Positions 9,166-22,930 of a stretch of 32,000 nucleotides of DNA are shown here, in pieces. A model generated the notes under the pieces. It was not told the origin of the DNA. It saw only the letters and a program-made list of their open reading frames with translations, and made no database searches. A program made the translations under genes and the position numbers. The DNA comes from Gemmata obscuriglobus (GTDB lineage Bacteria; Planctomycetota; Planctomycetia; Gemmatales; Gemmataceae): contig NZ_CP042911.1 in assembly GCF_008065095.1 (NCBI RefSeq), forward strand, positions 7,830,001 through 7,862,000. The letters are read 5' to 3'. Numbering within the stretch: the first letter of the stretch is position 1; every line of letters begins with the position of its first letter.

Positions 9166-9265
9166 AAAGGCACAACGGGCGCAAAAGGGAGCCGAAGGCA
9201 GAGGACTGATTCAATTGACTATCTGTCTCCGGTTCCCTTTTGTGCCCGTTGTGCCTTTTTGTGGC
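9159..9265. repeat. Hairpin of the GCCACAAAAAGGCACAA(A/C)GGGC repeat family (32-bp arms, 43-nt loop)
   Basis: Arms at 9159-9190 and 9234-9265 are complementary in 31/32 positions. The same family occurs at 23284-23336 and 24652-24889. Confidence 0.85.
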
Positions 9266-9373
9266 CGTAGTTTCGTCTTTCTCTGCGATCACGGCATACG
9301 GTGCCGGGCTCGGCACGACGCGGCTCCGCGGAGCCCGCGCCGCCGACCCGTATACCACCGCGGCCAGTTCGGC
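9191..9373 (-). repeat. Possible decayed terminal attC-like site of the array
   Basis: A GCCGAAC core (minus strand; + strand GTTCGGC at 9367-9373) directly follows the stop of 9374..9724. The nearest partner core is GCCGAAG at 9191-9197. The interior is occupied by one arm of the 9159..9265 hairpin. Confidence 0.25.
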
Positions 9374-9724
9374 CTACTCGCCACAGCGCTCTTTTACCTC
9401 GACTAACTGGAACGGCCGCCGGCGCTCGGCTGCCAAGGCGCAATAAGCGCTGAGAACCCACCAGCTCGTCTGGGCCGCACAGGCAGTCGCACAGGTCCGC
9501 CGCCCCCCTGCCCTCGCAACGCCCTTTCCAACGCCGCGAGCGCCGCGGGGCGCGGCGTACCGCCAGTCGAGCAGTTCGGCGTACCGAAGGGCCAGCCTGT
9601 TGAACAGTTCCGCCCGGCGGGTCGAGCCGGGCCGGAGGGCGTCGTATCGGGACCGCCACCGGCTCGACAGGAACGGGCGCAGGAGGCCGGCGTGGTCCGG
9701 TTCTGGCGCGACGCGTTCACCCAC
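9374..9724 (-). CDS. Last cassette ORF, hypothetical (116 aa)
   Basis: GTG start 6 nt after a GGAGGG that directly follows the core at 9737. The second half is Ala/Arg/Gly-rich, so a frameshift or non-coding status cannot be excluded. Confidence 0.3.
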   Translation of the reverse strand: MGERVAPEPDHAGLLRPFLSSRWRSRYDALRPGSTRRAELFNRLALRYAELLDWRYAAPRGARGVGKGVARAGGRRTCATACAAQTSWWVLSAYCALAAERRRPFQLVEVKERCGE

Positions 9725-9736
9725 CTTGTTCCCTCC

Positions 9737-9837
9737 GCCGAACGACACGCTCACCGGCCCGGCCGCGACACGAACGCGTGAGGGCAAGGAGGAACAGACC
9801 ACGTGCAGGGAGGGTCCGGTGCGGCACCGGGTTCGGC
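9737..9837 (-). repeat. attC-like cassette-boundary repeat (101 bp, divergent centre)
   Basis: + strand GCCGAAC at 9737-9743 and GTTCGGC at 9831-9837. The inner stem CACCGG/CCGGTG is kept. Confidence 0.65.
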
Positions 9838-9843
9838 GTGCCT

Positions 9844-10326
9844 CTACTCCTCGGTGACCTCAACGGTCGGGTACTCGGCCCCGACGTGGGCGCCCGGGCA
9901 GCGGCTCAGCACGACCTCTCGGGACCACAGGCACTCGAGGCTGTACACGGGGTGGATGGAGTTCTGAAACAGGTTGTCCCCGATCCCGTCCGACCACTGC
10001 CCCATCGTGTACTCGACCAGCGCCCGCAACTCGGCCGGCGCGAGCGGCCGCGGCGACCGGTACTCGGTCGTGGCGGTCAGTAACGGCTCGCCGGCGCGGT
10101 GCCCGAAGGTGATGACCCCGCCGGGCTCGAGCACCGCGGCCAGTTCCAGCTCCTCCGGCGTCGGGTGGAGGCCGCCCGGCCCGAGGTAGTCGGTGAACGT
10201 CTCGTCGTCGGCGACGAGGCCGTCGAGCGTGCTCAGGATGTCGGGGTCGGTCACCACCTGACACGGGTCCTCGTGCGGCCCCGGGGAGCAGACGCAAGCG
10301 TACCCACGGATCGCGATTCGAATCAC
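9844..10326 (-). CDS. Cassette ORF, hypothetical protein (160 aa)
   Basis: GTG start 6 nt after a GGAGGG that follows the core at 10343. Balanced amino-acid composition. The stop lies 6 nt before the next repeat. Confidence 0.6.
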   Translation of the reverse strand: MIRIAIRGYACVCSPGPHEDPCQVVTDPDILSTLDGLVADDETFTDYLGPGGLHPTPEELELAAVLEPGGVITFGHRAGEPLLTATTEYRSPRPLAPAELRALVEYTMGQWSDGIGDNLFQNSIHPVYSLECLWSREVVLSRCPGAHVGAEYPTVEVTEE

Positions 10327-10342
10327 GTCACGCCCTCCGCTC

Positions 10343-10427
10343 GCCGAACAACCCGCTCACCCGCCACCATCGGCTGAGCGGTGCGCCCCGAATCAGCGGC
10401 GGCGCCGGGGGCCACGCCGGGTTCGGC
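10343..10427 (-). repeat. attC-like cassette-boundary repeat (85 bp)
   Basis: Cores at 10343-10349 and 10421-10427. Consensus-like centre (...ggctgagcggtgcgccccgaatcag...). Confidence 0.7.
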
Positions 10428-10473
10428 TCGGCCTTACACGCGGCCGACGCCTCGCACCCGACGGCCCGCACGG

Positions 10474-10773
10474 TCAGTCCCTCCGGCACCACGCGGCGGT
10501 GACCGCGCAACCGATCCAGAAGGCCCAAAAGAATGCACAGAACAGCACCGCGGCTCCGATGCCTACGAGCCAGCCGCCACGGCCCGAAAGCGGTGCGACG
10601 CACGCCTCCCCGAGCACGAACGGGAACGACAGCCCCATCACGCGGGTGGCCCACCACCGCGCACGGCGGTAAGCCGCGACCGCCGCTCCGGCCCGCGTCC
10701 CGCGCCGCACGGGTGCCGAGCGCCCCTCCCCGGCGCGCGCGGCTTCCGGCGGCGGAGGCACAGGAACAAACAT
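10474..10773 (-). CDS. Cassette ORF, small membrane protein (99 aa)
   Basis: ATG at 10773, shortly after the core at 10788. Two hydrophobic helices (VMGLSFPFVLGEACV, WLVGIGAAVLFCAFFWAFWIGCAV). Confidence 0.45.
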   Translation of the reverse strand: MFVPVPPPPEAARAGEGRSAPVRRGTRAGAAVAAYRRARWWATRVMGLSFPFVLGEACVAPLSGRGGWLVGIGAAVLFCAFFWAFWIGCAVTAAWCRRD

Positions 10774-10787
10774 CGCGCCCTCTGCTT

Positions 10788-10865
10788 GCCGAACAACAAC
10801 CTCACCTGCACTGCCATCACCCATGAGCGATGCGTCACCAATCAGCCGGCGTTGCCGGGTTCGGC
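10788..10865 (-). repeat. attC-like cassette-boundary repeat (78 bp, shortened 3' arm)
   Basis: Cores at 10788-10794 and 10859-10865. The stop of 10842..11288 lies inside. Confidence 0.7.
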
Positions 10866-11288
10866 CCGGCTTCCCCCGGCCTCGGCCCACCACGCGGCGA
10901 GTTGTGGGGGCGGTTCCTCCCACCCCATCCAACTGCCCCAGTACTCGACCACCCATCGCCCGATCGCAGACCGCTGGTCTTGGGTGAAGGATTGGGGGGC
11001 GAACTCACCGCCGGTCAGCGCCGCCTCCAATGAGTCGACCTGCATGCCATTGGACCCGAATGCCGACAGCATGAACGCCGGCAGGTAGTACCGCTGGGCG
11101 GCCGGGGTGAGCAGCGGGAACGCGTGGTGACATTCCCTGGGAAAACCGGCGGCCACCTCCGGCCACGGCTGCCCCCCGAGCAACACGTCGGCCGCGTCGC
11201 ACTCCGGGCACCGGTGCTCAGTGATCGGACGCGGAGGGAGCGGTGCGTCCGGGAACGCCTCTCGCAACTGCCGCAACAGGGACCGCAC
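10842..11288 (-). CDS. Cassette ORF, Cys-x-E-C / YYLPAFM motif protein (DUF6714-like, tentative)
   Basis: GTG start after GGAGG. Motifs HRCPECD...LLGGQPWPEV...QRYYLPAFM. The last residues, AEPGNAG, are encoded by the repeat. Confidence 0.65.
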   Translation of the reverse strand: MRSLLRQLREAFPDAPLPPRPITEHRCPECDAADVLLGGQPWPEVAAGFPRECHHAFPLLTPAAQRYYLPAFMLSAFGSNGMQVDSLEAALTGGEFAPQSFTQDQRSAIGRWVVEYWGSWMGWEEPPPQLAAWWAEAGGSRAEPGNAG

Positions 11289-11305
11289 GCCGGTAGCCTC
11301 CGCTC

Positions 11306-11349
11306 GCCGAAGATTCAGCCCACCGGCACCGCCGGGGTCGGTCTCGGCG
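11306..11349 (-). repeat. Truncated attC-like repeat (~44 bp)
   Basis: GCCGAAG at 11306-11312 plus arm CACCGGCACCGCC, then an abrupt GGTCTCGGC. The centre and second arm are missing. Confidence 0.5.
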
Positions 11350-11351
11350 AC

Positions 11352-11588
11352 CTACGGCCCGGTCAGCAGTTTCACCAGCGCCATCAGCGCGACCACGAGC
11401 GTGACACCGACGATCACGACCCACATGTACGCCCGCTGCGCCCGGACGGCCCCCTTCTGGAGGGCGACGGACTTCTTCTGGAGGTCGAACGACTCGTCCA
11501 ACACCCGCCGCCGGTAGGCCAACTCCTCCCGCTGCGCGTCACGGATCTCGGTCAGCAGACGGAGGATCTGTTGCTCGGCTTCGCTCAC
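11352..11588 (-). CDS. Cassette ORF, small coiled-coil protein with C-terminal TM helix (78 aa)
   Basis: GTG start after GGGAGAGGG. C-terminal helix YMWVVIVGVTLVVALMALVKLL. Confidence 0.6.
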   Translation of the reverse strand: MSEAEQQILRLLTEIRDAQREELAYRRRVLDESFDLQKKSVALQKGAVRAQRAYMWVVIVGVTLVVALMALVKLLTGP

Positions 11589-11605
11589 GCGGGTCGCCCT
11601 CTCCC

Positions 11606-11686
11606 ACAGGACATCAAGCTCACGGCACCGCCATCACCGGATGAGCGGTGCGTCACCAATCCGCCGGCGCCGCCCCGGGCGCGGCG
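11606..11686 (-). repeat. Degenerate attC-like repeat (consensus centre, mutated cores)
   Basis: ctcacggcaccgccatcaccggatgagcggtgcgtcaccaat matches the family consensus. Both terminal cores have diverged. Confidence 0.5.
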
Positions 11687-12151
11687 CTATTCCTTGGCCC
11701 TGATCAGTACGCGCTCTTCGGTCTCGACCACCAATGTTATCTTGTCACCCGGTTGGCAACGATGGCCGAGTTGGTATTCGTGCCATCCGCCGTCGCCGAA
11801 CCGCACCTTGAGTGTTTCCAGAACGAGCGGCTCGGGATACCTCTCGCTCCAAACCTCCAGCGGTTCCCCTTCGATGGTGGCCTTCCGCGTCCAGTTTGTG
11901 GCATACGAGCGGCGTTTGTCCGGACGATCCACCGACTTACACTTCATCCCGAATTCTTGGATCGGCACCCCGGTTCGGTTGTGAACCCATACCGTGGTCT
12001 CGGCGCTGTTGTTCCTCAGTTGCTGCTCCCTCATCAGCGCGTCGAGCGCGGTCATATCACGATCAGTTTGGAAGGCACAGCCCGCCGTCCAAACGAGCGC
12101 GCCGCCGCAGAGCATCACGCGAGCGAATCGCATCACCGAGTTTGCAACCAT
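11687..12151 (-). CDS. Cassette ORF, lipoprotein (154 aa)
   Basis: ATG at 12151 after AAGGAAG. Signal and lipobox MVANSVMRFARVMLCGGALVWTAGC. Confidence 0.65.
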   Translation of the reverse strand: MVANSVMRFARVMLCGGALVWTAGCAFQTDRDMTALDALMREQQLRNNSAETTVWVHNRTGVPIQEFGMKCKSVDRPDKRRSYATNWTRKATIEGEPLEVWSERYPEPLVLETLKVRFGDGGWHEYQLGHRCQPGDKITLVVETEERVLIRAKE

Positions 12152-12169
12152 ACGTGCTTCCTTGCTGGC

Positions 12170-12256
12170 GCCGAACTTACCACTCACCGACCCCGCCATC
12201 AACTGCACCGCGGCGCCGAATCAGCCGGCGGTGCCCGGTGCCGTGCCGGGTTCGGG
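12170..12256 (-). repeat. attC-like cassette-boundary repeat (87 bp, variant centre)
   Basis: GCCGAAC at 12170-12176 and GTTCGGG at 12250-12256. The stop of 12221..12700 lies inside. Confidence 0.7.
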
Positions 12257-12700
12257 GCGCTCGCGGCCCCCGGCCCAGGCCCGCACGTCCGCCAGGAACG
12301 GCTCGAACCCCGGCCAGTACACCTCCGACTCCCGCACCTCGAACCGCCGCCACCCGACCGCGAACCGCACCGCCCGGTCGCTGAACGTGTCGGCGTCGTC
12401 CTCCCGGCGGAGGTCCACCACGGACCACCACTCGACCGCCGCCCACCGGAGGACGAACCCGCCCACAAGCCGGGGCCGCCTGGAGACGCCGTCGGGGCCG
12501 ACCTCCACCCGTGTCCGCAGGTGGGCGACGCCGAGCAGGGCCACCGCCACCGCAAACGGGGGGAAGCAACACACGCCGACCGCGTCGCCCGGGTGCCCGC
12601 GGAGGCCGGCGCCCAAGCCGACGATCAGCACAACGGCGGCGATACTCACGACCAGCCACCCCTGGTCGCGCCGCGGACGATAAACCCGTGGCCAGTCCAC
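12221..12700 (-). CDS. Cassette ORF, membrane protein (159 aa), possibly bacterial PH-like
   Basis: GTG at 12700, 4 nt after GGAGG. Two N-terminal hydrophobic helices. The tail EPGTAPGTAG is encoded by the repeat. Confidence 0.55.
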   Translation of the reverse strand: MDWPRVYRPRRDQGWLVVSIAAVVLIVGLGAGLRGHPGDAVGVCCFPPFAVAVALLGVAHLRTRVEVGPDGVSRRPRLVGGFVLRWAAVEWWSVVDLRREDDADTFSDRAVRFAVGWRRFEVRESEVYWPGFEPFLADVRAWAGGRERPEPGTAPGTAG

Positions 12701-12709
12701 TGCGCCTCC

Positions 12710-12800
12710 ACCGAAGAACAACCTTGACCGGCACCGCCATCACCTGCACCGCGGCGCGCCCCGAATCCGCCCGCGGTGTCAGGGCCGCACCTGGGCCGGC
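12710..12800 (-). repeat. attC-like repeat with degenerate cores (~90 bp)
   Basis: ACCGAAGAAC at 12710-12719 ... GGCCGGC at ~12794-12800. The centre resembles the 12170 copy (cacctgcaccgcggcg). Confidence 0.55.
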
Positions 12801-12802
12801 AT

Positions 12803-13432
12803 CTACCGGTTTTCGGGCCGCTCCCAGCGAGCTTTGACGACCAGTGCCCAACGGGCCTTCTTCACCGCCTCTTCCAGCGGCTCTCCGTCCATTCGCCCGT
12901 CCGTGCGGACCACGAACGCCCACACCGGTACCACCTCGCCTTCCGCCAACTCCCGTGGCTCGGCCAGGTCCACCGCGCGGCTCATTTGCCCCATGTCCGA
13001 CACTTCCGGGACGGCAGCCGTGTAGGAGTGCGAGGCCCCCTGACCGGACGGCGTAGCCACCGCCGTCACCAGCCGGTACACTCGGCCCCCTTTGGAGTCG
13101 TGTGCCTCCCGAATGGAGAACGACACCTCACTCGGCCCGCGCACCCGCGACTTCGACGAGCCCAGAGTACGCGGCTTTCCCATCTCCCAGAGTTCGGGCT
13201 CGAAGCCGAAAAAGAGGTCCTCGTCGGGGGCGTCGAGACGGAGGCAGCCGGTCGCCGTCAGGTCAAGGTGAGGGGAGAGGCGGCCGAGCTCTCCGGTCAG
13301 CAGCTTGGCCGGCGCGACGCGGACGACTCGGGCGGGCGCCCCTGAATCGGTTGGCGCGGTCGGCGACCGGCGGCACCCGCCGACCACCGCCAGGACGATG
13401 GCGCAGAAGAGTCCCACACACCAGCGTTTCAT
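12803..13432 (-). CDS. Cassette ORF, lipoprotein (209 aa)
   Basis: ATG start. Signal and lipobox MKRWCVGLFCAIVLAVVGGC. Confidence 0.65.
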   Translation of the reverse strand: MKRWCVGLFCAIVLAVVGGCRRSPTAPTDSGAPARVVRVAPAKLLTGELGRLSPHLDLTATGCLRLDAPDEDLFFGFEPELWEMGKPRTLGSSKSRVRGPSEVSFSIREAHDSKGGRVYRLVTAVATPSGQGASHSYTAAVPEVSDMGQMSRAVDLAEPRELAEGEVVPVWAFVVRTDGRMDGEPLEEAVKKARWALVVKARWERPENR

Positions 13433-13449
13433 ACCGGACCCCTTCTGTG

Positions 13450-13498
13450 GCCGAACAACACCTTCACCGGCTTTACGGCACGCCGCGGCTGGCGCGAC
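13450..13498 (-). repeat. Short attC-like repeat (~49 bp)
   Basis: GCCGAAC at 13450-13456 plus CACCGGC, followed by a short divergent second half ending at the stop of 13499..13966. Confidence 0.5.
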
Positions 13499-13966
13499 TC
13501 AGTTGAGCCCCTTACATACTCGGATCTGCTGATGCACCTGCTCGACGAACTCATCAAAGTCTCCAACTCCGCGCCGTGCCCGAGCAATGAGCAGCGCCGG
13601 TACACCCGCATCGGTCACGAGCTGAGCGAATTCGGTTTTGCGGACGGTTGCCAATGCCACCGACGCACAGACCAGGCCGACCCCACCGACGAGAACGGCA
13701 CCGAGCCCCAGGGGGTCGAGCTTGAGCCCTTCCACAAGCACCGGCCAGCCGCACCCCGCTAGCGTCGCGCCCATGAGTCCCGACCAAAATGTACTGCTCC
13801 TCAGCCGCAACCAATCCACTCGCGGTTGCAGTCCGGCCAGCGGCAGCATGGCCTCGATCTCGCCCCGAAGGAAGATCGTGCTGGTGACACGGATCGCATC
13901 AAGTAACAGCACGAACCGGTGCCGGCCCTCAAACGTGACCGCTTCGTACACTGCAATCGCATCCAC
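13499..13966 (-). CDS. Cassette ORF, membrane protein (155 aa)
   Basis: GTG start after GGGGGAGG. Hydrophobic helices in the C-terminal half. Confidence 0.55.
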   Translation of the reverse strand: MDAIAVYEAVTFEGRHRFVLLLDAIRVTSTIFLRGEIEAMLPLAGLQPRVDWLRLRSSTFWSGLMGATLAGCGWPVLVEGLKLDPLGLGAVLVGGVGLVCASVALATVRKTEFAQLVTDAGVPALLIARARRGVGDFDEFVEQVHQQIRVCKGLN

Positions 13967-13988
13967 GCAACCCTCGCCTCCCCCGCGT

Positions 13989-14079
13989 ACCGAACAACAA
14001 CCTCACCGGCACCGCCGCCACCGGATGAGCGGTGCGTCCCGAGTCAGCCGGCGGTGCCCGGTGCCGCACCGGGTTCGGC
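13989..14079 (-). repeat. attC-like cassette-boundary repeat (91 bp, near-consensus)
   Basis: ACCGAAC at 13989-13995 and GTTCGGC at 14073-14079. Perfect 13-bp inner stem CACCGGCACCGCC / GGCGGTG-C-CCGGTG with one unpaired base. Confidence 0.75.
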
Positions 14080-14093
14080 GTCACCCGACGTGG

Positions 14094-14984
14094 CTACTTC
14101 CGTTGGCCCGATACCTTGGCTCCGGCCTTCTCCAGCGATTCCACGATCTCCTGGCTGGAGTGCTTGCGCGCGTAGTCCAGGATGTTCGGGTAAAACTTCC
14201 CACCGGTCACGTCCGTTTTGGCCCCCCGAGCGAGCAAAAGCTTGACGATCTCTTTGTCCCCGGCCCAGACCGCGTTTGTCAAAGCGGTGGCCTCCCCGCC
14301 GGCGTTGGGCATGAACGTCCCCTCGTTCACGTCGGCCCCGGCGTCCAGAAGGAGTTGAACGATCTCCTTGTCCTTCCGGCCGGCGGCCAGCCCCAGCGGG
14401 GTGATACTTCCCCACAGGTTCGATCCCTCGGACGGCCGCCGCGCCAGCTTCGGATCGTCCTTGAGCATCTTCTTGACCGCGTCCCGCTTCTTGAGCATGA
14501 TCGCCGACCGCAAGTCGAGCGCGACGCCGGAGGCCAGGACGGCCTCGGCGACATCCGCGTGTTCGTCCTCGGCCGCCCGTTGAAGAGGCGTGTTCCCCCA
14601 AGCGTCCTTCCGGTTCAGATCCGCCCCGGCCTTGATCAGAAGTTTGGCGACAGCCGCGTTACTGACGACGTGCATCGGGGTGTACCGGTTGTAGGAGACG
14701 GAGTTCACGTCGGCCTTCTGATCGATCAGCCACTTGGCCGTTTCCACGCGGCCGTACCGGGCCGCGTAATGCAGAGCGGTGCAGTCGGATTCGTCCGCGT
14801 CGTGGACGAGTGACGGGTTCTGCTTCACCAGCTTCAGGATCGCGTCGTCTTTTCCATCGGCGAACGTCGTGTGCAGCGCTTTGAGGACGGCAGGATCGGT
14901 ACGTTTGGGCTCCTCGGCGCGGGAAGCACCGCCCGCGCCCACGAGACACAAACACCCGATCAGGAGCAACGACGCCGTTCGCAT
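14094..14984 (-). CDS. Cassette ORF, secreted ankyrin-repeat protein (296 aa)
   Basis: ATG at 14984 after AAGGAGGA. Signal peptide MRTASLLLIGCLCLVGAGGASRA. Repeated TALHYAA/TPLQRAA...G..VN ankyrin units. The 400-aa ORF in the track is a read-through extension across the repeat. Confidence 0.85.
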   Translation of the reverse strand: MRTASLLLIGCLCLVGAGGASRAEEPKRTDPAVLKALHTTFADGKDDAILKLVKQNPSLVHDADESDCTALHYAARYGRVETAKWLIDQKADVNSVSYNRYTPMHVVSNAAVAKLLIKAGADLNRKDAWGNTPLQRAAEDEHADVAEAVLASGVALDLRSAIMLKKRDAVKKMLKDDPKLARRPSEGSNLWGSITPLGLAAGRKDKEIVQLLLDAGADVNEGTFMPNAGGEATALTNAVWAGDKEIVKLLLARGAKTDVTGGKFYPNILDYARKHSSQEIVESLEKAGAKVSGQRK

Positions 14985-15016
14985 GACCTTCCTCCTTGCT
15001 CTACCACACGCAGCAC

Positions 15017-15108
15017 GTCGAACAAACTGATCACCGGCACCGCCCACCACCGGATGAGCGATGCGCACCGAATCAGCCGGCGGTGTCCGGTGGCGTGCCG
15101 GGTTCGGC
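15017..15108 (-). repeat. attC-like cassette-boundary repeat (92 bp)
   Basis: GTCGAAC at 15017-15023 and GTTCGGC at 15102-15108. The stop of 15073..15555 lies inside. Confidence 0.75.
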
Positions 15109-15555
15109 GCCTTGCTCCACGGCACGGACGGCCTGTGGGTCGAGGTAGACCGCGACCGGCCACATGCAGTCCGACCGCTCGGTGCCGACCACGCGGCCGC
15201 ACGCACAGATGCGATTGGGGCCGTGGGCACCGCTCGGCCCGCAGCACCCGATCCAACGCCCCCGCTCCGGGTGGTTGCCCACCCCGACCAGCGCACCCGG
15301 TCGGACCGCGAAACAGCCCGTGAAGTCCACCGGCTGGCCGTCGAAGTTGCTCGGCAGGTGCCCGGCCGCGACCGGCCAGTAATGCTTCTCCGGTACGAGC
15401 GGGGCCAATTCCTTCTCGCAAAGGGCCGCCGCGTCGTCCAACCGCCGCAGCGGCGCGGTCAGCGCGGTTCCGCATCCTCGGCATGCGAACACCGCGACCG
15501 CCGGCGGAGGGGGTGGGACGTGCCACGACTCCTGATGTCGCTGGACCCGCTTCAC
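15073..15555 (-). CDS. Cassette ORF, cysteine-rich hypothetical protein (160 aa)
   Basis: Contains CRGCG...GCCGPSGAHGPNRICACG...DC, a putative metal-binding pattern. The tail AEPGTPPDTAG is encoded by the repeat. Confidence 0.6.
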   Translation of the reverse strand: MKRVQRHQESWHVPPPPPAVAVFACRGCGTALTAPLRRLDDAAALCEKELAPLVPEKHYWPVAAGHLPSNFDGQPVDFTGCFAVRPGALVGVGNHPERGRWIGCCGPSGAHGPNRICACGRVVGTERSDCMWPVAVYLDPQAVRAVEQGAEPGTPPDTAG

Positions 15556-15575
15556 GCCGTGCAGCCCTCAAGGTT

Positions 15576-15666: not shown

Positions 15667-15669
15667 AGG

Positions 15670-16472: not shown

Positions 16473-16563
16473 GCTGAACAATGAGCTCACCTGCACCGCC
16501 ACCATCGGATGAGCGATGCGTCCCAGATCAGATGGCGGTGTCAGGTGTAGCGCCGGGTTCGAC
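16473..16563 (-). repeat. attC-like cassette-boundary repeat (91 bp)
   Basis: GCTGAAC at 16473-16479 and GTTCGAC at 16557-16563. Perfect inner stem with one unpaired T. The stop of 16528..16971 lies inside. Confidence 0.75.
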
Positions 16564-16971: not shown

Positions 16972-16987
16972 CGGTGCGCCCTCCGCC

Positions 16988-17098
16988 CCCGAACATTAAG
17001 GTCACCGGTCCGGCCGCGGCACCAGTCGCGCAGACGGACACCCGGCAAGCAGCGGGAAACCGATCACGTGGCCGGGTCCGGTGCCACGCGGGTTCGGC
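16988..17098 (-). repeat. attC-like cassette-boundary repeat (111 bp, divergent centre)
   Basis: CCCGAAC at 16988-16994 and GTTCGGC at 17092-17098. Inner stem CACCGG-T-CCGGCC / GGCCGG-GT-CCGGTG, i.e. a different sequence with the same architecture. Confidence 0.7.
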
Positions 17099-17135
17099 CT
17101 CTTGCGGGGCGAGGTGCCGAGCCGACGTGGGCGAG

Positions 17136-17846
17136 TCACTTCGCCGGTTGCGTGAGCCGGAACTGATCGATAGTGACCTCGAACTGGGCTTGGTAGGAGT
17201 TCTCGGCTACCACCCCGACGCGAACCGTCTCTTCCCAGCCGACCCGGTGGTCCGACTTGATCTCGTGCCACGTCTTGCCGTCACGGCTCCAAAAAGATGC
17301 GACCGCCTTTCCGGCTCGGGTGAGCCGCACGTAGCCGGCATCTCCCGGCCCGTCCTTGTCAACCGCGCTGGCACCGTAACTGCGATTGGTGGTGTAATGG
17401 TTGAAGTGAAAGTTCTCTTGTTGCGGGTTGGGGATCGGCCGGGGGAACGTGAACTCTGTCCGCACCACCTGCACCACCTCACCCCCGGCCATGGCGAGCA
17501 GACCAGCCCTCGACTCCGCCCTCTGACTATCGCCCGGGGGCGTGACCACGCGGATCGGGAACGCGACCCGGACGGTGGCGGTAAAGTCTCCCTTGACCTC
17601 ATTCCAGGTGTAGGGAGCGTTCATCCGGCTCGCGTCCTCGACCACATGACGGGTCGCCGGGATCGTGATCTGGAGCGCGTCCCGCTTGAGTTCAAAAGTA
17701 CAGTCCTTGTCCGGATCGACGGGTGTGCCGTAGAGCCGACGCAACCGTGTGTCGCCGTCCTCTTTCGGAACCGGCGCGGCCGCGGACACAAACGTCACCA
17801 GGAACGCAAGGGCCGACGTGCTGGCGAGTGGACCCCATCGCTTCAT
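17136..17846 (-). CDS. Cassette ORF, secreted ConA-like lectin/glucanase-fold protein (DUF1349-type, tentative)
   Basis: ATG at 17846. Signal peptide MKRWGPLASTSALAFLVTFVSAAAP. Motifs ...APYTWNEVKGDFTATVRV...AGLLA...VRLTRAGKAVASFWSRDGKTWHEI. Confidence 0.7.
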   Translation of the reverse strand: MKRWGPLASTSALAFLVTFVSAAAPVPKEDGDTRLRRLYGTPVDPDKDCTFELKRDALQITIPATRHVVEDASRMNAPYTWNEVKGDFTATVRVAFPIRVVTPPGDSQRAESRAGLLAMAGGEVVQVVRTEFTFPRPIPNPQQENFHFNHYTTNRSYGASAVDKDGPGDAGYVRLTRAGKAVASFWSRDGKTWHEIKSDHRVGWEETVRVGVVAENSYQAQFEVTIDQFRLTQPAK

Positions 17847-17952
17847 ACACATCTCCGTGTTCTGCACCCCGAGTCGAGAGCGTTCCGAGATTCGAAGCCA
17901 ATTCAAGCTTCTCATCCGCCTCGTGCCCGAGGCTCACCGCTTGCGTGGTGCC

Positions 17953-18042
17953 GCCGAACATCAGCTCACTGGCCGCGGGGAGCCGCGATCCGATCGGGAA
18001 AGTAGACATTTTGCCGTGGTCCGGTGCGGCGCCGGGTTCGGC
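17953..18042 (-). repeat. attC-like cassette-boundary repeat (90 bp, divergent centre)
   Basis: Cores at 17953-17959 and 18036-18042. The inner stem is maintained with G-T pairs. Confidence 0.7.
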
Positions 18043-18052
18043 TCGCCTTTGC

Positions 18053-18568
18053 TCAGAACCCCTTCTTGAGCTTACCATACACTGCCTGTTCCTTCTCGGG
18101 CCACCTCCAGTACACGACCGCCGCCCATCGGTTCGGATTGGCCGGGTCGGACCAGCGGTTCCACTCCCGGTCCGCACGGAAGATGTTCTTGCCCCCGTTC
18201 CACCACCGCAGTTCGAATTCCTCGACCTCCGGCCCCCACGCGCGTCGCTCCGTCGGAGGCCCGAGTAATCGCTCGACCTCTTCCCGGCTTGCTCCCGCCT
18301 GAATCTGGCCGAATCGCTCTGCAACTAGACCGAAGTCGAGGGGCGTCGGTGGTGGGGCAACAGCCCGCGCGCGCTCGGCCGCCTGCGCCCGCTCGATGTT
18401 GGTGACCGCATGCCGCGTCCAAAGGATCAGGACCATGATCCCGGCCAGCCAAGTCAGGTCGATGAGGACTTGGGTCTGGCGCGGGGTGAGTTGCCGCTCG
18501 TTGCCCGGTTGCGGTTCGGGCGCGTGCGACGGGGGTGGTGGATAGCTCGGCAATGATGCGTAGTCCAT
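18053..18568 (-). CDS. Cassette ORF, membrane-anchored protein with BamE/SmpA-like segment (171 aa, tentative)
   Basis: ATG at 18568, 4 nt after GAGGAGGGG. One TM helix (LTWLAGIMVLILW). QIQAGASREEVERLLGPP resembles the SmpA/OmlA motif. Confidence 0.65.
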   Translation of the reverse strand: MDYASLPSYPPPPSHAPEPQPGNERQLTPRQTQVLIDLTWLAGIMVLILWTRHAVTNIERAQAAERARAVAPPPTPLDFGLVAERFGQIQAGASREEVERLLGPPTERRAWGPEVEEFELRWWNGGKNIFRADREWNRWSDPANPNRWAAVVYWRWPEKEQAVYGKLKKGF

Positions 18569-18589
18569 CGCCCCTCCTCGGCTTCTGTG

Positions 18590-18680
18590 ACCGAACATTA
18601 AGCTCGCCGGCACCGCCATCACCGGATGAGCGGTGCGCCCCTGATCACCCGGCGGTGTCAGGTGCCGCGCCGGGTTCGGA
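18590..18680 (-). repeat. attC-like cassette-boundary repeat (91 bp)
   Basis: ACCGAAC at 18590-18596 and GTTCGGA at 18674-18680. The stop of 18645..19646 lies inside. Confidence 0.75.
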
Positions 18681-18950
18681 CTCTGCGGCTCGCACCGGCA
18701 GCGATGCCAGCCACTCGCGGAACAACTCCGGATTGTCCCGTACGCAGTCCGGGCAGAACACCACGCTGACGTACTTCAGGTAGCGGCCGACCACCGGGTC
18801 GCCCCGGTAGATGGTGGCACGGCACGACTCGCAGTGCGTGTGCCCGCCCTCGTCCGGCGACGACCGCCAGCCGTGCATCGGCTCCAGTGGCAACGGGAAG
18901 TGCTGCGGGTATTTCCGCAACCGCTCAAGCACCTCGGCTGGTACCTTCAT
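18645..18950 (-). CDS. Cassette ORF, small CxxC...CxxC zinc-ribbon-like protein (101 aa) if translated from its own ATG
   Basis: ATG at 18950, preceded by ACAGAGGG directly after the core at 18971. HCESC and FCPDC motifs. Tail EPGAAPDTAG. Confidence 0.45.
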   Translation of the reverse strand: MKVPAEVLERLRKYPQHFPLPLEPMHGWRSSPDEGGHTHCESCRATIYRGDPVVGRYLKYVSVVFCPDCVRDNPELFREWLASLPVRAAESEPGAAPDTAG

Positions 18951-19646
18951 CGGTCGAGAGCCCTCTGTGTGCCGAACGATGAGCTCACCTGCACCGCCAT
19001 CACCGGATGAATGGTGCGTTCCAGACCCGATGGCGGTGTCAGGCGCCGCGCCGGGTTCGGCCGCGCCACCTTGGGCGAACACCATCGCCTTTTCAACATC
19101 GACCAGCGCCTCGATGGCGTCTGCGTACTTCGGGTCGATCTCGATTGCCTTTCGGAAGCACTCGGCCGCCTCGCTCAATCGGCCTTGTCCGCGAAGGACA
19201 AGACCGAGGTTGTGATACGCTTCGTCCCGCAGCCAAGATTCCGCCCACTGGGTCGCGGCCCGGTGCGTCGCCTCGGCTTCGTTCAGCTTCCCCTGACGAG
19301 CTTGGCACGCACCGAGGAACATGTAGCTCGCGAGTTCATCCGGCTCGATCTCGATCGCCTTCCGGAACCACGGTTCCGCTCGCGCGGGGTGCCCCCAGTA
19401 CTGGTACATGCGTCCGAGCTGGTTGTAGATCGCCCAACGTCCATCCTCCTCGATCTTGCCGAGTGCGTTCTCGTATACGCCGATGGCCTCCTCGTACCGC
19501 GTCATCTTGTACAACATCTCAGCGTAATTGAGAATGATGCCAAGATCATCCGGGTGGGACTGGAGCCAAAGCGGGGCCAACAGAACGGTCGTCGCGGCGT
19601 GGTCATTGCGGAATGCTTCCTCGACCATTTCGCGGGTCACTTCCAC
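18645..19646 (-). CDS. TPR-repeat protein ORF that reads through the repeat at 18971..19061 into the downstream cassette ORF (333-aa fusion)
   Basis: GTG at 19646 after GAGGG. TPR units (AIGVYENALG..., AEPWFRKAIEIEPD, AAECFRKAIEIDPKYADA). This repeat copy has lost the usual in-frame TGA (atcgggtct instead of ggctgattc). Confidence 0.55.
   Translation of the reverse strand: MEVTREMVEEAFRNDHAATTVLLAPLWLQSHPDDLGIILNYAEMLYKMTRYEEAIGVYENALGKIEEDGRWAIYNQLGRMYQYWGHPARAEPWFRKAIEIEPDELASYMFLGACQARQGKLNEAEATHRAATQWAESWLRDEAYHNLGLVLRGQGRLSEAAECFRKAIEIDPKYADAIEALVDVEKAMVFAQGGAAEPGAAPDTAIGSGTHHSSGDGGAGELIVRHTEGSRPMKVPAEVLERLRKYPQHFPLPLEPMHGWRSSPDEGGHTHCESCRATIYRGDPVVGRYLKYVSVVFCPDCVRDNPELFREWLASLPVRAAESEPGAAPDTAG
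18971..19061 (-). repeat. attC-like cassette-boundary repeat (91 bp), translated within ORF 18645..19646
   Basis: Cores at 18971-18977 and 19055-19061, checked against codon positions. Confidence 0.75.
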
Positions 19647-19662
19647 CGTGCTGCCCTCTGTG

Positions 19663-19753
19663 GCCGAACAGAAAGCTCACCTGCACCGCCATCACCGGAT
19701 GAGCGATGCGTTCCGAATCAGCTTGCGGCGTCCGGTGCCGCGCCGGGTTCGGC
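19663..19753 (-). repeat. attC-like cassette-boundary repeat (91 bp)
   Basis: Cores at 19663-19669 and 19747-19753. Confidence 0.75.
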
Positions 19754-19769
19754 GCCTGAACTCAGCCGG

Positions 19770-20270
19770 CTACTTGCCTTGTCGCCGGAGTACCGTCAGC
19801 ACGAGCGAGGAATTGGCGGGCGAATCGAATGACGTCGGGCGTTGCGCACCGGTGTTGTCGTAGCAGACGGTGAGTCGGTCGCCCTCCAATTTGTAAATCC
19901 CCGGCCGGCGCTTCTTCCCGAACGGCATCGCCGCGTCGTCGTCCATTTGCTTCGGGCTGGCAGTCGGATCGACCCAGATGGTGGACTTGATCGGGGACAG
20001 CCGTTGACCGTCGGCGCGGTGCACTTCCCGCGTCATGGTGTCCTCGCGGATGACGATGGTGCTCCTACCCATCTCCGCAGCCGGGATCTCCTTACCCTCA
20101 ACAATCTGCCGCTCGTACACCCACGTCCCCGCGAGCGCGGCCAGTTCGTCAGCCTTTGCCCGCGGGTCCACGTTCGCCCCGACGCCGGGGCCGCTTGGCG
20201 ACCGACTGCACCCGTTGAGCAAAACGATCGTGGCGAATACCACCGACAGCAGTGCGATTCGTCGCTGCAT
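19770..20270 (-). CDS. Cassette ORF, TIGR03067-type planctomycete lipoprotein (166 aa)
   Basis: Lipobox LLNGC. Motifs LAGTWVYE...DP...PKQMD...PGIYKLEGDRLTVCY....RPTSF......LVLTVLRR match the Planctomycetes TIGR03067 domain pattern. Confidence 0.8.
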   Translation of the reverse strand: MQRRIALLSVVFATIVLLNGCSRSPSGPGVGANVDPRAKADELAALAGTWVYERQIVEGKEIPAAEMGRSTIVIREDTMTREVHRADGQRLSPIKSTIWVDPTASPKQMDDDAAMPFGKKRRPGIYKLEGDRLTVCYDNTGAQRPTSFDSPANSSLVLTVLRRQGK

Positions 20271-20283
20271 GCCTGCTCCACTT

Positions 20284-20314
20284 GCCGAACGTGTTGCTCA
20301 CCCGCCGCCGCCGG
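20284..20314 (-). repeat. Half attC-like site (~31 bp)
   Basis: GCCGAAC at 20284-20290 plus ctcacccgccgccgccgg, then directly the stop of 20315..21550. The second arm and core are missing. Confidence 0.5.
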
Positions 20315-21550
20315 TCACCTTGGGGCGTCGGCCTCCGCCTTCTTCACCAGCTCGTCGAGCAGTCCATCCAGCTCCGGGCCGCGGACCGCCTTCGCCCGGA
20401 TCACCCCGGCATGGTCGATTACGTACACCGTCGGCCAGCCGCTCACGTTCCACGCCCGCGGGACCTCGCCGGCGTTACCCTTCGGCCCGCACCAGAACGA
20501 CCGCCACGGCAGCTTAAGCCCCTCGACCACGGCTTTCGCCGCGTCCCGGTCCTCGTCGACGTTGGCCCCGACCGCCGCGAACGGCCGCCCGGCGAACCGC
20601 GCGACCAGCTTCAGTTCCTGCCGCGCGAACACGTGGCACGGCCCACACCGGCTGTGCCAGAACGTCAGCACCGCCACCTTGCCGCGGTAGTCGCTCAGCT
20701 TCATCGCCCGGCCGTCGAGGTCCTCGCCGACGACCTCCGGCGCCTTCTTCCCGACCGCCAGGTGGCGAACCTCGTACGCCTCCTCCTTGGCCCGCTCCAC
20801 GATCGACACGCCGCGGTGCAGTTCGCCGGGCACCTGCTTCGCGACCAGTTGGTCGAGGATGCCCAGCGCCTCGACCTCGAGCTTGGCCGCGTCCCGCTTG
20901 CGGACCTTGGAGATGAAGTCCCGGCCGTACCGCCGGGCGATCGACGGGTCGGACATCCGGGCGACCTCGGCCTTCTCCTTCAGGTGCACGGCCAGCGCGA
21001 ACTGCAGCAAGGCCCGCTCCTTCGGGGTCCTAGCCCGCTCGGCGAGGAGGCCGCGGATGATCGGCTCGCGGAAGTCGTCGCACCCCCCACCCCGCCCAAA
21101 TTGGGCCCAGCTCAGCACGATCGGGTTGGACAGGTGGTGCCGGCCCATCAGGGCACCGGCCTCCTCCCGGTCGTCGCTGCCGCCGTGCATCGTTGCAAAG
21201 GCCAGCCCCATGTACACCTGCGGGTCTGCGGCGTGCTCGCGCAGCAGCGGCATGAGGGCGCGGGCCGCGGCGCGGTCGGTCGTCTTCAGCTCCTCGCCCG
21301 CGTCGGCCGCCCACTTGTCGACCGCGTCCTGCTCGGCCGGGGCCTTCGCCTTCCCGCCCCTCGCGGCGTACTCCTCGTACATCTTCCGCTCACGGCCCTT
21401 CTGGACTTTGACTGCCGCCTCGATCTCGGCGACCCACGCCGGCTGGTCGCGTGGGGGTGAACTCGCGGGGGGTGTCGGGGGATCGGCCAGGGCGGGGTTG
21501 AGGAGAAAGCTGACGCCGCAGAACACCGCCCCAAACAACACGCACCTCAT
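20315..21550 (-). CDS. Cassette ORF, secreted TlpA-like thiol:disulfide oxidoreductase (thioredoxin fold) with N-terminal helical domain (411 aa)
   Basis: Signal peptide, then APEVVGEDLDGRAMKLSDYRGKVAVLTFWHSRCGPC...GWPTVYVIDHAGVIR (CxxC thioredoxin-like motif). Confidence 0.85.
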   Translation of the reverse strand: MRCVLFGAVFCGVSFLLNPALADPPTPPASSPPRDQPAWVAEIEAAVKVQKGRERKMYEEYAARGGKAKAPAEQDAVDKWAADAGEELKTTDRAAARALMPLLREHAADPQVYMGLAFATMHGGSDDREEAGALMGRHHLSNPIVLSWAQFGRGGGCDDFREPIIRGLLAERARTPKERALLQFALAVHLKEKAEVARMSDPSIARRYGRDFISKVRKRDAAKLEVEALGILDQLVAKQVPGELHRGVSIVERAKEEAYEVRHLAVGKKAPEVVGEDLDGRAMKLSDYRGKVAVLTFWHSRCGPCHVFARQELKLVARFAGRPFAAVGANVDEDRDAAKAVVEGLKLPWRSFWCGPKGNAGEVPRAWNVSGWPTVYVIDHAGVIRAKAVRGPELDGLLDELVKKAEADAPR

Positions 21551-21566
21551 GGTCAGCCCTCATCTT

Positions 21567-21656
21567 GCCGAACTACAGCTCACCTGCACCGCCATCACCG
21601 GATGAGCGGTGCGTCCCGAATCAGCTTGCGGCGTCCGGTGCCGCGCCGGGTTCAGC
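21567..21656 (-). repeat. attC-like cassette-boundary repeat (90 bp)
   Basis: GCCGAAC at 21567-21573 and GTTCAGC at 21650-21656. The stop of 21621..22223 lies inside. Confidence 0.75.
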
Positions 21657-22223
21657 CTCCGGTGCTCCGCCCCCGAGCGGGGTCAGCATCTCGCGGCGCA
21701 GTCGAAGGTAGTCCTGGCCCCGCGGCGTGATCTCGAAGTGGTCTCGGACGTTGACCTCCTTTCCGGCCGCCTCAACGATTGCTCCGAACAGTGACCGGAT
21801 GCCACATCCCGGCCGTCCGACGACGAACCCGAGAGACTTGAGCCGCCGCATTTCGGCCTCGAAAAACGAGGTCGTCGAGTTGCGACGGGCGGGATACGAC
21901 TTGTTGGCAGCCAGCCCTTCCAGGTGACGGCACTCATGCTCGGTAAGGAAGTAGGCCAATAGGAACTTGATCGCATCGATCTCCTGAGCCTGCCGGCGCT
22001 GCTCGGTTTTCACGGCTTGGAACTCGACCTTCAACCCGCCGGGCAACTCGGCCCGTGTTAGGACAGAAGCGAGCCAAGGGAGAATGGCCAATCCAATCAG
22101 GGCGAGCCCGGTGGTGTCAAGCCGTGTCCGCTCTGACGCCATGTGGACGAGAAAGGCGGTGCCAGCGACCGCGCTGACGGCGAGCTTCGCGGTAAGGGTG
22201 CGGCGTTGATCCGGCGATCCCAT
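21621..22223 (-). CDS. Cassette ORF, membrane-anchored hypothetical protein (200 aa)
   Basis: ATG after CACAGAGGG. Two N-terminal helices and a soluble C-terminal part. The tail AEPGAAPDAAS is encoded by the repeat. Confidence 0.6.
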   Translation of the reverse strand: MGSPDQRRTLTAKLAVSAVAGTAFLVHMASERTRLDTTGLALIGLAILPWLASVLTRAELPGGLKVEFQAVKTEQRRQAQEIDAIKFLLAYFLTEHECRHLEGLAANKSYPARRNSTTSFFEAEMRRLKSLGFVVGRPGCGIRSLFGAIVEAAGKEVNVRDHFEITPRGQDYLRLRREMLTPLGGGAPEAEPGAAPDAAS

Positions 22224-22239
22224 TGAAGCACCCTCTGTG

Positions 22240-22331
22240 GCCGAACGATGAAGCTCACCTGCACCGCCCCCTCCCAGGGAGCAATGCGTCGGAAACCACC
22301 TGGCGTTGTCAGGTTCAGCGCCGGGTTCAGC
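22240..22331 (-). repeat. attC-like cassette-boundary repeat (92 bp, divergent centre)
   Basis: GCCGAAC at 22240-22246 and GTTCAGC at 22325-22331. Confidence 0.7.
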
Positions 22332-22352
22332 GTGGCTTCGGCCCGCGGCGAT

Positions 22353-22907
22353 TTACTTGACCGACTTCAGGAACGTCACCACCTCGGTCCGCTTCGTGTC
22401 CTCGGCGATCTGCAGCGCGGTGCGGGCCGGGACGGCGGGGAACTTCACCGGGGCCGCGTCCGGCGGGCCGCCCGGGGCGAAACTCTCGGGGAACGCCGTC
22501 GTCCTGGCATCGGCCTTCGCGCCGGCCTTCACCAGCCGCCTGACCACGTCCAGGTGCCCGCCCTCGGCGGCCAGGTGCAGCGGCGTGTACCCGTAGCCAT
22601 CGGCCACATTCACGCCCGCCCCCTTCTCGACCAGGAAGGCGACGACCTCGCCCCGGCCGTGCCGGGCCGCCGTCTGCAGCGGCGTGTAGTCGTCGCCGTG
22701 GGTGGGCCTGCCGAGCTGCCGGTCCCGCTTGGCGTCGAGAAGCTTCGGGTGCTTCTCGAGGACGGCTCGCAGGTGGGCCAGCTGGCCGTCCTCCGCGAAG
22801 TGGTGGATCGCCTCGACGAGGGCATCCCGGTACGGGTCGGCTGCTTCCGGAGCTTTGCCGAGAGCCGGGATGGACAGCACCACCGGAAGAAGCAACGTCG
22901 CAACCAT
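22353..22907 (-). CDS. First cassette ORF, secreted ankyrin-repeat protein (184 aa)
   Basis: ATG at 22907, 7 nt after AGGAGG. Signal peptide MVATLLLPVVLSIPALG. Ankyrin units YTPLQTAARHG...GAGVN and YTPLHLAAEGGHLDVVRRLVKAGA. Confidence 0.8.
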   Translation of the reverse strand: MVATLLLPVVLSIPALGKAPEAADPYRDALVEAIHHFAEDGQLAHLRAVLEKHPKLLDAKRDRQLGRPTHGDDYTPLQTAARHGRGEVVAFLVEKGAGVNVADGYGYTPLHLAAEGGHLDVVRRLVKAGAKADARTTAFPESFAPGGPPDAAPVKFPAVPARTALQIAEDTKRTEVVTFLKSVK

Positions 22908-22923
22908 CGGTTGTCCTCCTGCC

Positions 22924-22930
22924 GCCGAAC
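22924..22930 (-). repeat. Lone GTTCGGC core at the head of the array (attI-like junction candidate)
   Basis: + strand GCCGAAC at 22924-22930 with no arm or second core upstream. It is followed on the minus strand by the SD and ATG of the first cassette. Confidence 0.4.

Follow-up and report, generated by a model that had tools for sequence, protein, structure and literature searches.

A stretch of 32,000 nucleotides from the chromosome of Gemmata obscuriglobus, referred to here as the window (67.6% G+C), carries between 9.7 and 22.9 kb a row of co-directional open reading frames (ORFs), which are separated from each other by copies of one structured repeat. We conclude with high confidence that this locus is a chromosomal integron cassette array, in which the repeats represent attC recombination sites, and that it forms a second platform, of the CALIN type, within a chromosomal integron system of co-directional layout. 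The term CALIN denotes clusters of attC sites without an integron integrase (IntegronFinder; PMC4889954); the local integrase gene intI is gone except for about 110 nt, and the array is therefore by definition a CALIN and not a complete integron. This conclusion is based on the architecture of the sites and the covariation of their stems, the agreement with a published attC profile, the linkage of the site family to integron integrases (IntI), the homology of the array head to intI and attI, and the shuffling of repeat-bounded modules between species. The folding of the sites, the excision and insertion of cassettes and a position-dependent expression, which are considered further below, are taken over from established integron biology.

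One repeat copy per cassette on a single strand

The element measures about 90 nt and is found once in each gap between the minus-strand ORFs from 9.7 to 22.9 kb. Read in the direction of the ORFs, it starts with GCCGAAC-CCGG and ends with GGTGAGC, 5-6 nt and GTTCGGC. In the window, 39 copies of the heptamer GCCGAAC were counted, compared to 11.4 ± 3.6 in shuffled sequences, and a gapped pattern of the whole element yielded 11 matches with 0 expected, on the minus strand every time. A covariance model, which was built from 15 window copies and run unfiltered on the 32-kb window, returned 17 matches with E ≤ 6e-6, all of them on the minus strand and all within 9737-22331; outside this interval the model detected no significant attC-type copy. 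Three additional copies below the threshold are fragments (20284-~20316, 13450-~13497 and 11306-11350). We thus recovered the 20 copies, one per ORF gap, that had been counted in a preliminary description of the sequence, and also the reported core positions including a lone core, which lies at 22924-22930. The mean pairwise identity of the sites is 0.72 and rises to 0.80 if four copies with divergent centres are left aside.

The cores delimit 20 core-to-core intervals of 300-1283 bp, which agrees with the spacing of 0.3-1.3 kb given before, and each interval harbors a single minus-strand ORF. In this layout the stop codon leads into the R'' box of the site, and R' is followed within a few nucleotides by a purine-rich stretch resembling a Shine-Dalgarno sequence, as already described, and by the start codon of the next ORF. 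Each unit therefore has the form expected of a gene cassette, i.e. one co-oriented ORF with attC at its 3' end. The products are mutually unrelated; according to Pfam and NCBIfam searches, seven can be assigned to a family and the rest, about a dozen, are orphans. The earlier product labels could largely be reproduced, namely two ankyrin proteins and one TPR, HEAT, thioredoxin, TIGR03067 and ConA-like (DUF1349) protein each, with the exception of the label BamE-like.

The repeats share the architecture of attC sites

When a structure was specified by hand, the window copies turned out to be 91.7% paired in it. From the outside inward this structure has an R helix of 7 bp and a spacer of 5 nt, then 2 bp with a G.A mismatch and one additional G, and further in a helix of 6 bp, a bulged A, a helix of 7 bp and a variable centre. 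Over 150 copies from several other genomes its 22 base pairs are 96.5% paired and show 144 double-sided (compensatory) changes versus 34 ± 4 in shuffles, both counts leaning toward the structure as the 150-copy alignment had been fitted to the model. When the partners were slid by one to three columns, only 7-25 double-sided changes were left in these copies.

Several features of this structure are those of attC sites. The terminal 7-bp boxes R'' and R' are inverted and contain AAC...GTT; in GCCGAAC/GTTCGGC the AAC/GTT part is invariant in 15 of 15 window copies, and its positions are ~96-98% paired in the 150 copies. Position 4 of the R box (G/C) is off the consensus RYYYAAC/GTTRRRY, and the deviation is complementary. 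Unpaired spacers (5 nt left, 5-6 nt right) set off the L boxes, and the L'' side contains an additional base (model position 16), which marks the polarity of the site, and, as a second such feature, a conserved bulged A. Moreover, the structure is conserved beyond the sequence, with the reservation made above for the fitted alignment, and the centre is variable. Indeed, the copies at 9737, 16988, 17953 and 22240, which had been singled out before for their varying centres, keep the same arms around centres that are unrelated and of different length, resulting in sites of 90-111 nt.

For comparison with known sites we used the covariance and hidden Markov models (HMMs) of 188 attC sites of Planctomycetes, which are available from the supplement of Ghaly et al. 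2021 (PMC8352920). In this model, R'' of 7 bp is followed by 5 unpaired positions, L'' of 3 bp, a bulge and 4 bp, a loop, L' of 7, about 6 unpaired positions and R' of 7, and the box spacing of the window sites is exactly the same. The consensus of the model for L''/L', GUUGCAgC / GCUGAaC, is recognisably that of the Gemmata boxes GCGGCACC / GGTGAGC, with GCA[C/G]C as L'' core and G[G/C]UGA[A/G]C as L' box in both. The model differs in its R'' (GCCUAAC) and R' (GUUAGGC) and in a U that is nearly invariant at position 15, whereas in the Gemmata family both R'' position 4 and position 15 are G, the former having a frequency of ~5% in the model, and the second stem is longer and carries the conserved bulged A.

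The window was scored with the emission tables of this model in a partial re-implementation (positions 1-20, 84-90 and 97-103), which does not equal a cmsearch run, and the null was the maximum over a 32-kb strand in each of 100 first-order Markov simulations. Seven copies reached 25-34 bits and 10 copies exceeded 20.8 bits, compared to a null maximum with a mean of 12.4, a 95th percentile of 20.8 and a largest value of 23.5. All of these matches are exactly in register and confined to the ORF strand, the best score of the opposite strand being 15.7 bits. The published attC profile hence recognises the window sites in the right polarity. An Rfam search of the window at gathering thresholds gave 0 matches, there being no Rfam family for the elements, and a test for matching between R' and the R'' of the downstream cassette was not informative, as the R boxes are too uniform. 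The site family had been called non-canonical, which is correct with regard to the complementary one-position deviation of the R boxes, but it is so only mildly, since the box geometry is standard and G at position 4 also occurs in ~5% in the published model.

The array starts with an integrase relic and an attI region

Upstream of the first cassette, the window retains the end of an integrase gene. For each of three IntI queries in tblastn, the minus-strand segment 23092-23190 is the best match of the window (E 0.009-0.11, whole window), and the best six-frame match of an HMM made from 111 integron integrases is located at the same relic (E 0.065). The relic (23083-23191, minus strand) covers the last ~35 codons, in which Asp is encoded at the position of the catalytic Tyr and the stop codon has disappeared; its peptide TTPEPSGYAGIETTVNDTHARNTCACGGTSPLDEL is identical in 16 of 35 residues to the last 35 of the intact G. 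obscuriglobus IntI described below, and its nucleotide identity to the last 110 nt of the corresponding gene is 65.5%. The adjoining 22924-23082 is 74.7% identical, with blocks of 87-90%, to the attI region that follows the intact intI (locus L125) and is also related to that of Gemmata algarum (L124); most of it (22931-23082, minus strand) represents the attI-like stretch that separates the intI relic from the first cassette. An independent blastn comparison gave a 244-nt match at 74.6% across the head region. Similarity is at background level upstream of 23191 and directly past the GTTCGGC core (22924-22930).

The putative attI recombination junction CTAAACACTG|GTTCGGC occupies 22924-22940 (minus strand); conservation of the junction CTAAnnACnnGTTCGGC was seen beside the IntI genes of L125 and of two further loci, L006 and L036, as well as at another array head of G. 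algarum (L013). The similarity between platforms thus ends at the G|TT core, as would be expected of a candidate attI site at the head of an array, and judged from the sequence, the lone core at 22924-22930 is the probable attI crossover point. The attI blocks are better conserved than the intI relic (87-90% versus 65%), which suggests that attI is still under constraint. From these results we conclude that the window contains the promoter-proximal head of an integron platform with its own attI and a ΔintI stub. Of the two options considered in the preliminary description, a CALIN-type array or the distal part of a sedentary integron, only the former can therefore be retained. The statement that no tyrosine recombinase lies on the flanks holds for intact genes, since no intact intI adjoins the array and Pfam and NCBIfam detected no recombinase on either flank, but it overlooked the decayed 3' stub of intI at 23083-23191. 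Scans of the head region for sigma-70 promoters and intrinsic terminators found nothing, and we therefore do not propose a Pc promoter.

An intact integron integrase is linked to the same sites elsewhere in the chromosome

A search of the genome for IntI had been suggested as a check of the integron interpretation, and an intact enzyme was indeed found; the lack of any IntI homolog, which had been named as an argument against the interpretation, does not apply. A profile search with planctomycete IntIs led to an integron integrase of G. algarum, whose 90%-identity cluster contains the G. obscuriglobus protein WP_010036109.1. This protein of 322 aa scores 427 bits on TIGR02249 (cutoff 265) and is already named 'integron integrase [Gemmata obscuriglobus]' by NCBI. 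Its gene is located at ~6.64 Mb (CP025958.1, ~6,641,959-6,642,927) and is followed within 10 kb by at least 20 attC sites of the same family on the same strand, which score 65-106 bits with the window-derived model. A 283-aa protein encoded immediately upstream of the array occurs in identical form on contig ABGO01000029.1 of G. obscuriglobus UQM 2246. A histidine-kinase gene of the window corresponds to CP025958.1:161433-165088, and this places the window at ~0.16-0.19 Mb of the 9.0-Mb chromosome, about 2.5 Mb around the circle from the intact integron. A homology search with the IntI of a Gemmata metagenome-assembled genome (MAG) had returned no G. obscuriglobus integrase among the 120 matches listed. 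An IS66-family transposase is encoded upstream of the intact integron (L125 1-895).

The linkage extends to related genomes. A whole-element pattern scan of GTDB species genomes, in which the matches listed did not reach G. obscuriglobus, retrieved among these matches contigs of Gemmata algarum, Gemmata sp., other Gemmataceae and Planctomycetota, and a few of Verrucomicrobiota. The window-derived model detected at least ~260 copies on the contigs listed, with a single strand at every locus; in total the loci examined contain more than 280 copies of the attC family, likewise on one strand per locus. Using tblastn with an IntI1 query, we identified homologues with 51-55% identity adjoining the arrays in L036, L006 and L007. 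These integrases score 398-420 bits on TIGR02249 (cutoff as above), and their closest database relatives are annotated as integron integrases. In L036, L006, L007 and L125, intI is located directly upstream of the array and is oriented like the cassettes.

The intI gene of L036 is full length. That of L006 (1204-2058, minus strand) is without its first ~55 codons, and that of L007 (1010-1814) is truncated and shows the Tyr-to-Asp exchange at the catalytic residue that was also found in the window relic; integrase decay seems to be common in the Gemmata integron clade. L007 was binned as Alcaligenaceae, and the same attC family is found on three contigs of Verrucomicrobiota MAGs (L072, L079 and L099), with an IntI fragment in L099. 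The presence of the family on contigs of other phyla is due either to mis-binning or to an inter-phylum transfer of the integron lineage.

In Gemmata sp. SMAG_U3706, units of ~190 bp resembling attI are found inside arrays (L038 ~950-1137; L063 ~3512-3700 and L110 ~3239-3430, both minus strand). They are homologous to the region downstream of the L006 intI and end in CTAATTACATGTTCGGC; the unit in L063 directly follows an attC R' core, and those in L110 and L038 follow a bare GTTCGGC core. These units look like cassette-like 'Δ-attI' modules or fused platforms.

Cassettes have been reordered between Gemmata species

A comparison with relatives, which had been proposed as a further check, was possible with G. 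algarum, where a 16-kb segment of contig_34 (104-120 kb) consists of a continuous array with at least 27 sites. Five cassettes are common to this segment and the window, with 86-94% nucleotide and 86-97% amino acid identity. In ORF direction, and numbered from the head of the window array, their order in G. algarum is 9-14-20-17-18 with other cassettes in between, including between 17 and 18, compared to 9-(4 others)-14-(2 others)-17-18-(1 other)-20 in the window. Past the neighbouring attC sites of the common cassettes, the similarity drops to ~50%, i.e. to background. The same cassettes thus occur in a different order and beside different neighbours, and, as read from the two sequences, presence, absence and position appear to vary by cassette. 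While presence and absence can be explained by deletions between direct repeats, the changed order cannot, and deletions alone are therefore not sufficient. The comparison further revealed that the window sites at 11306-11350 and 10788-10865 (the latter with a 12-nt gap) have arisen by internal deletion, the G. algarum counterparts being intact.

A model of the platform and observations that weigh against it

The array is made up of 20 single-ORF cassettes, predicted to be promoterless, each of which ends in an attC site of a family common to Gemmataceae and related MAGs. At its head, in ORF direction, the 3' relic of intI is followed by the conserved attI region, which extends to the recombination core G|TTCGGC, the local integrase having been deleted down to ~110 nt. 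In analogy to known integrons, the bottom strands of the attC sites would fold into hairpins with extrahelical bases; an IntI, which is assumed to be supplied in trans, would excise cassettes as circles by attC x attC recombination and insert excised cassettes at attI, and the cassettes near attI would be those expressed.

Several points speak against this interpretation. The R boxes GCCGAAC/GTTCGGC deviate from RYYYAAC/GTTRRRY by a single position, and a G.A mismatch takes the place of the U15-A pair found in the published L box. Six of the 20 attC sites are truncated or degenerate, and some of the cassettes are therefore probably fused and immobile. That WP_010036109.1 acts in trans on the window array is an assumption. 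Finally, for cassettes 20 (9844-10326) and 14 (12803-13432) the 3' half of the upstream attC site (10343-10427 and 13450-13497, respectively) is conserved together with the downstream cassette, which is not predicted by the textbook crossover at G|TT; this pattern could be due to common ancestry of neighbouring cassettes or to crossovers elsewhere in the site.

Some of these observations would also fit a real integron array that is a frozen fossil, in which recombination stopped after the deletion of intI and the differences to G. algarum go back to old events, to RecA-dependent deletions between direct repeats of ~90 nt and to palindrome slippage. Apart from the reduction of intI to a 110-nt stub without the catalytic Tyr codon and the truncated or degenerate sites, several of which are internal deletions of sites intact in G. 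algarum, a transposase of the DDE type found in insertion sequences (IS) is encoded nearby, and a static remnant without intI has been recorded in Treponema phagedenis (PMC3607928). We nevertheless consider a fossil unlikely, although it retains appreciable weight: the same chromosome has an intact TIGR02249 integrase with the same attC family, the attI blocks are conserved to 87-90% next to an intI relic at 65%, which suggests constraint on attI, and the change in cassette order relative to G. algarum is impossible by deletions alone.

It is very improbable that the elements are palindromes unrelated to site-specific recombination, similar to repetitive extragenic palindromes (REPs), to the mosaic elements composed of them (BIMEs) or to terminators, which have gathered between co-directional genes. 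With REPs and BIMEs they have in common that they are short, GC-rich, imperfect palindromes in intergenic positions just past the stop codons, and ordinary intergenic regions of Gemmata do contain a REP-like family, GCACAAAGGGCACAAAAG, which is unrelated to the elements and occurs in either orientation. However, REPs are found in both orientations genome-wide and have no link to an integron integrase or to modular gene shuffling, whereas more than 280 copies of the present family occupy a single strand at every locus examined, stand in direct linkage with integron integrases and a conserved attI junction, match the published attC profile in register and polarity, and bound modules that have been shuffled between species. 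Solitary copies in both orientations were not seen either, there being no copy outside the array in the 32-kb window and only single-strand arrays at the related loci, and the elements lack a T-run terminator tail as far as they were covered by the head-region scan and by reading of the sequence. Repeated insertion of miniature inverted-repeat transposable elements (MITEs) between genes has a practically negligible probability: the elements do have 7-bp terminal inverted repeats, and a 741-aa DDE_5 transposase that could mobilise them is encoded at 5632-7857 near the distal array end, but target-site duplications are absent, the elements adjoin ORF stop codons with strict polarity, their terminal 7-mers are integron R boxes, and the other arrays have IntI beside them instead of the transposase, which gave only one weak match (L015).

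Within the preferred interpretation as an integron platform, we have also considered a wider scenario, which is speculative and, as a whole, rather doubtful. Gemmataceae integrons would form a distinct co-directional lineage, whose platforms multiply in the genome: attI units, as seen in SMAG_U3706, would move as cassette-like modules and seed new heads that are served in trans by a single surviving IntI, while additional intI genes decay. The window would then be one of the secondary platforms, and IntI would have co-evolved with the GCCGAAC/GTTCGGC R box and the two-bulge L stem.

Comparison with known integrons

The array resembles the Vibrio cholerae superintegron with its VCR attC sites, in that both are long chromosomal arrays of co-oriented and mostly orphan single-ORF cassettes, promoterless in V. 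cholerae and predicted to be so in the window, with a species- or clade-specific, fairly homogeneous attC family and a cassette content that varies among related species. In contrast to V. cholerae, the window is without an adjacent functional intI, the intI of the Gemmata clade is co-directional with the cassettes and not divergent, the R boxes are GCCGAAC/GTTCGGC and not RYYYAAC/GTTRRRY, and no toxin-antitoxin cassettes were recognised among the window ORFs. A closer parallel in layout is provided by Treponema, since an atypical co-directional intI architecture has been described in Treponema denticola and an array remnant without intI in T. phagedenis (PMC3607928). In both the Treponema and the Gemmata clade, intI is transcribed toward attI and the cassettes, and there are arrays that have lost intI and kept their attC-bounded cassettes. 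Apart from the phylum and the attC sequence family, the window differs from the Treponema cases in its recognisable ΔintI stub and full attI and in that its genome also holds an intact integron, so that the array may be served in trans.

As in other CALINs, there are at least two attC sites and no intact intI nearby, and the sites resemble one another, as has been reported for CALINs derived from chromosomal integrons (PMC4889954). Most CALINs have been described without a head, whereas the window retains attI and the intI relic, which points to an origin by decay or deletion of the integrase in place. With regard to the view that cassette arrays are poorly characterised in Planctomycetota, integrons and CALINs of Planctomycetes have already been recorded in surveys (PMC4889954) and a model of their attC sites has already been published (PMC8352920). 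Among the papers searched, none links Gemmata to attC sites or cassette arrays. Novel are the array itself, a Gemmataceae attC family whose R boxes read GCCGAAC/GTTCGGC, the finding that the layout in the clade is co-directional, and the clear ΔintI/attI head.

The current understanding of integrons is not changed by these results, and the array is a fairly ordinary example of a known system. It is also a well-preserved example, from outside the Proteobacteria, of how a CALIN originates, with the integrase lost in place, attI kept and an intact integrase of the same specificity elsewhere in the chromosome. The attC family with its more than 280 copies can help to tune attC detectors and to assign environmental cassettes to Planctomycetota, and the cargo, which consists mostly of orphan secreted or membrane proteins and of repeat proteins (ankyrin, TPR, HEAT), gives a hint at what Gemmata-type bacteria trade.

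Content of the cassette array

In ORF direction from attI, with all features on the minus strand and bit scores referring to the window-derived covariance model unless stated otherwise, cassette 1 (22353-22907; gene call in L001) encodes an ankyrin repeat protein of 184 aa matching Pfam Ank families and ends in attC 1 (22240-22331; 81.7 bits, published-profile score 33.6 bits). Cassette 2 (21621-22223) encodes a 200-aa orphan without a Pfam or NCBIfam match and is bounded by attC 2 (21567-21656; 93 bits). The 411-aa product of cassette 3 (20315-21550) belongs to the AhpC/TSA-redoxin proteins of the thioredoxin fold according to Pfam; the corresponding attC 3 (20284-20316), recognised by reading of the sequence and sub-threshold in the covariance model, is truncated to L' and R'. 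Cassette 4 (19770-20270) codes for a TIGR03067-domain protein (NCBIfam, 99.6 bits) and cassette 5 (19077-19646) for a TPR protein (Pfam TPR families), with attC 4 at 19663-19753 (100.1 bits) and attC 5 at 18971-19061 (98.4 bits).

Two orphans of 88 aa (cassette 6, 18687-18950) and 171 aa (cassette 7, 18053-18568) follow, which are delimited by attC 6 (18590-18680; 96.7 bits) and by attC 7 with a divergent centre (17953-18042; 66.2 bits). The DUF1349 (ConA-like, Pfam) protein of cassette 8 (17136-17846) precedes the long attC 8, which also has a divergent centre (16988-17098; 66.9 bits). Cassette 9 (16570-16971) encodes a membrane orphan that is common to G. algarum (90% aa and 90% nt identity to L065) and is followed by attC 9 (16473-16563; 98.6 bits). 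In cassette 10, the ORF of a HEAT-repeat protein (15670-16311; Pfam) lies upstream of attC 10 (15576-15666; 103.9 bits). A signal-peptide-like ORF in another frame (16312-16446, minus strand, starting at 16446) meets this main ORF near a run of seven G (~16320), and the arrangement may represent a frameshifted gene or a sequencing error.

The orphan of cassette 11 (15113-15555) and the ankyrin repeat protein with signal peptide of cassette 12 (14094-14984; Pfam) are followed by attC 11 (15017-15108; 88.1 bits) and attC 12 (13989-14079; 94.7 bits), respectively. Cassette 13 (13499-13966) encodes an orphan and ends in the truncated attC 13 (13450-13497; sequence reading), at the equivalent position of which G. 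algarum has a full attC. The lipoprotein-like orphan of cassette 14 (12803-13432) is common to G. algarum (86% aa, 89% nt), and attC 14 (12710-12806; 34.3 bits, E 5.6e-6) has degenerate R boxes. Further orphans are encoded by cassette 15 (12262-12700), with attC 15 at 12170-12256 (74.8 bits), and cassette 16 (11687-12151), whose attC 16 (11606-11703; 38.1 bits) has a degenerate R'.

Cassettes 17 (11352-11588; 78 aa) and 18 (10870-11288; weak DUF6714 match) are common to G. algarum with 91% and 93% aa identity. The centre of attC 17 (11306-11350) is deleted, the G. algarum orthologue being a full site, and attC 18 (10788-10865; 43.2 bits) has a 12-nt deletion in L'' compared to the G. algarum copy. 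Cassette 19 (10474-10773), a 99-aa orphan, is bounded by attC 19 (10343-10427; 63 bits). The last cassette, 20 (9844-10326), is common to G. algarum with 97% aa and 94% nt identity, and its attC 20, the last site of the array, has a divergent centre (9737-9837; 65.3 bits). A 116-aa ORF without an attC site of its own is located past it (9374-9724, minus strand) and is absent from the G. algarum segments examined; it represents either a terminal cassette minus its site or the first non-cassette gene.

Flanks of the array

The transposase ORF at 5632-7857 (minus strand), which matches DDE_5 / DDE_Tnp_1, belongs to an IS element and lies ~1.9 kb past the distal array end. A tRNA scan of the window found none, and there is therefore no signature of a tRNA-linked island. 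A 47-nt direct repeat that flanks the array (9231-9277 and 23282-23328) was considered as the boundary of a mobile island and rejected, as the GCACAAAGGGCACAAAAG motif is also present at 24685-24828 and in G. algarum. The repeat belongs to a second repeat family built on this motif, with copies in the window at 9159-9265, 23282-23328, 24685-24706, 24747-24768 and 24807-24828 and in L114 at 436-587. The family looks REP-like: its copies are found in both orientations in ordinary intergenic regions, also in G. algarum, and two of them bracket the cassette array. The copy at 9159-9265 is a palindrome with 44-bp arms that are 91% complementary.

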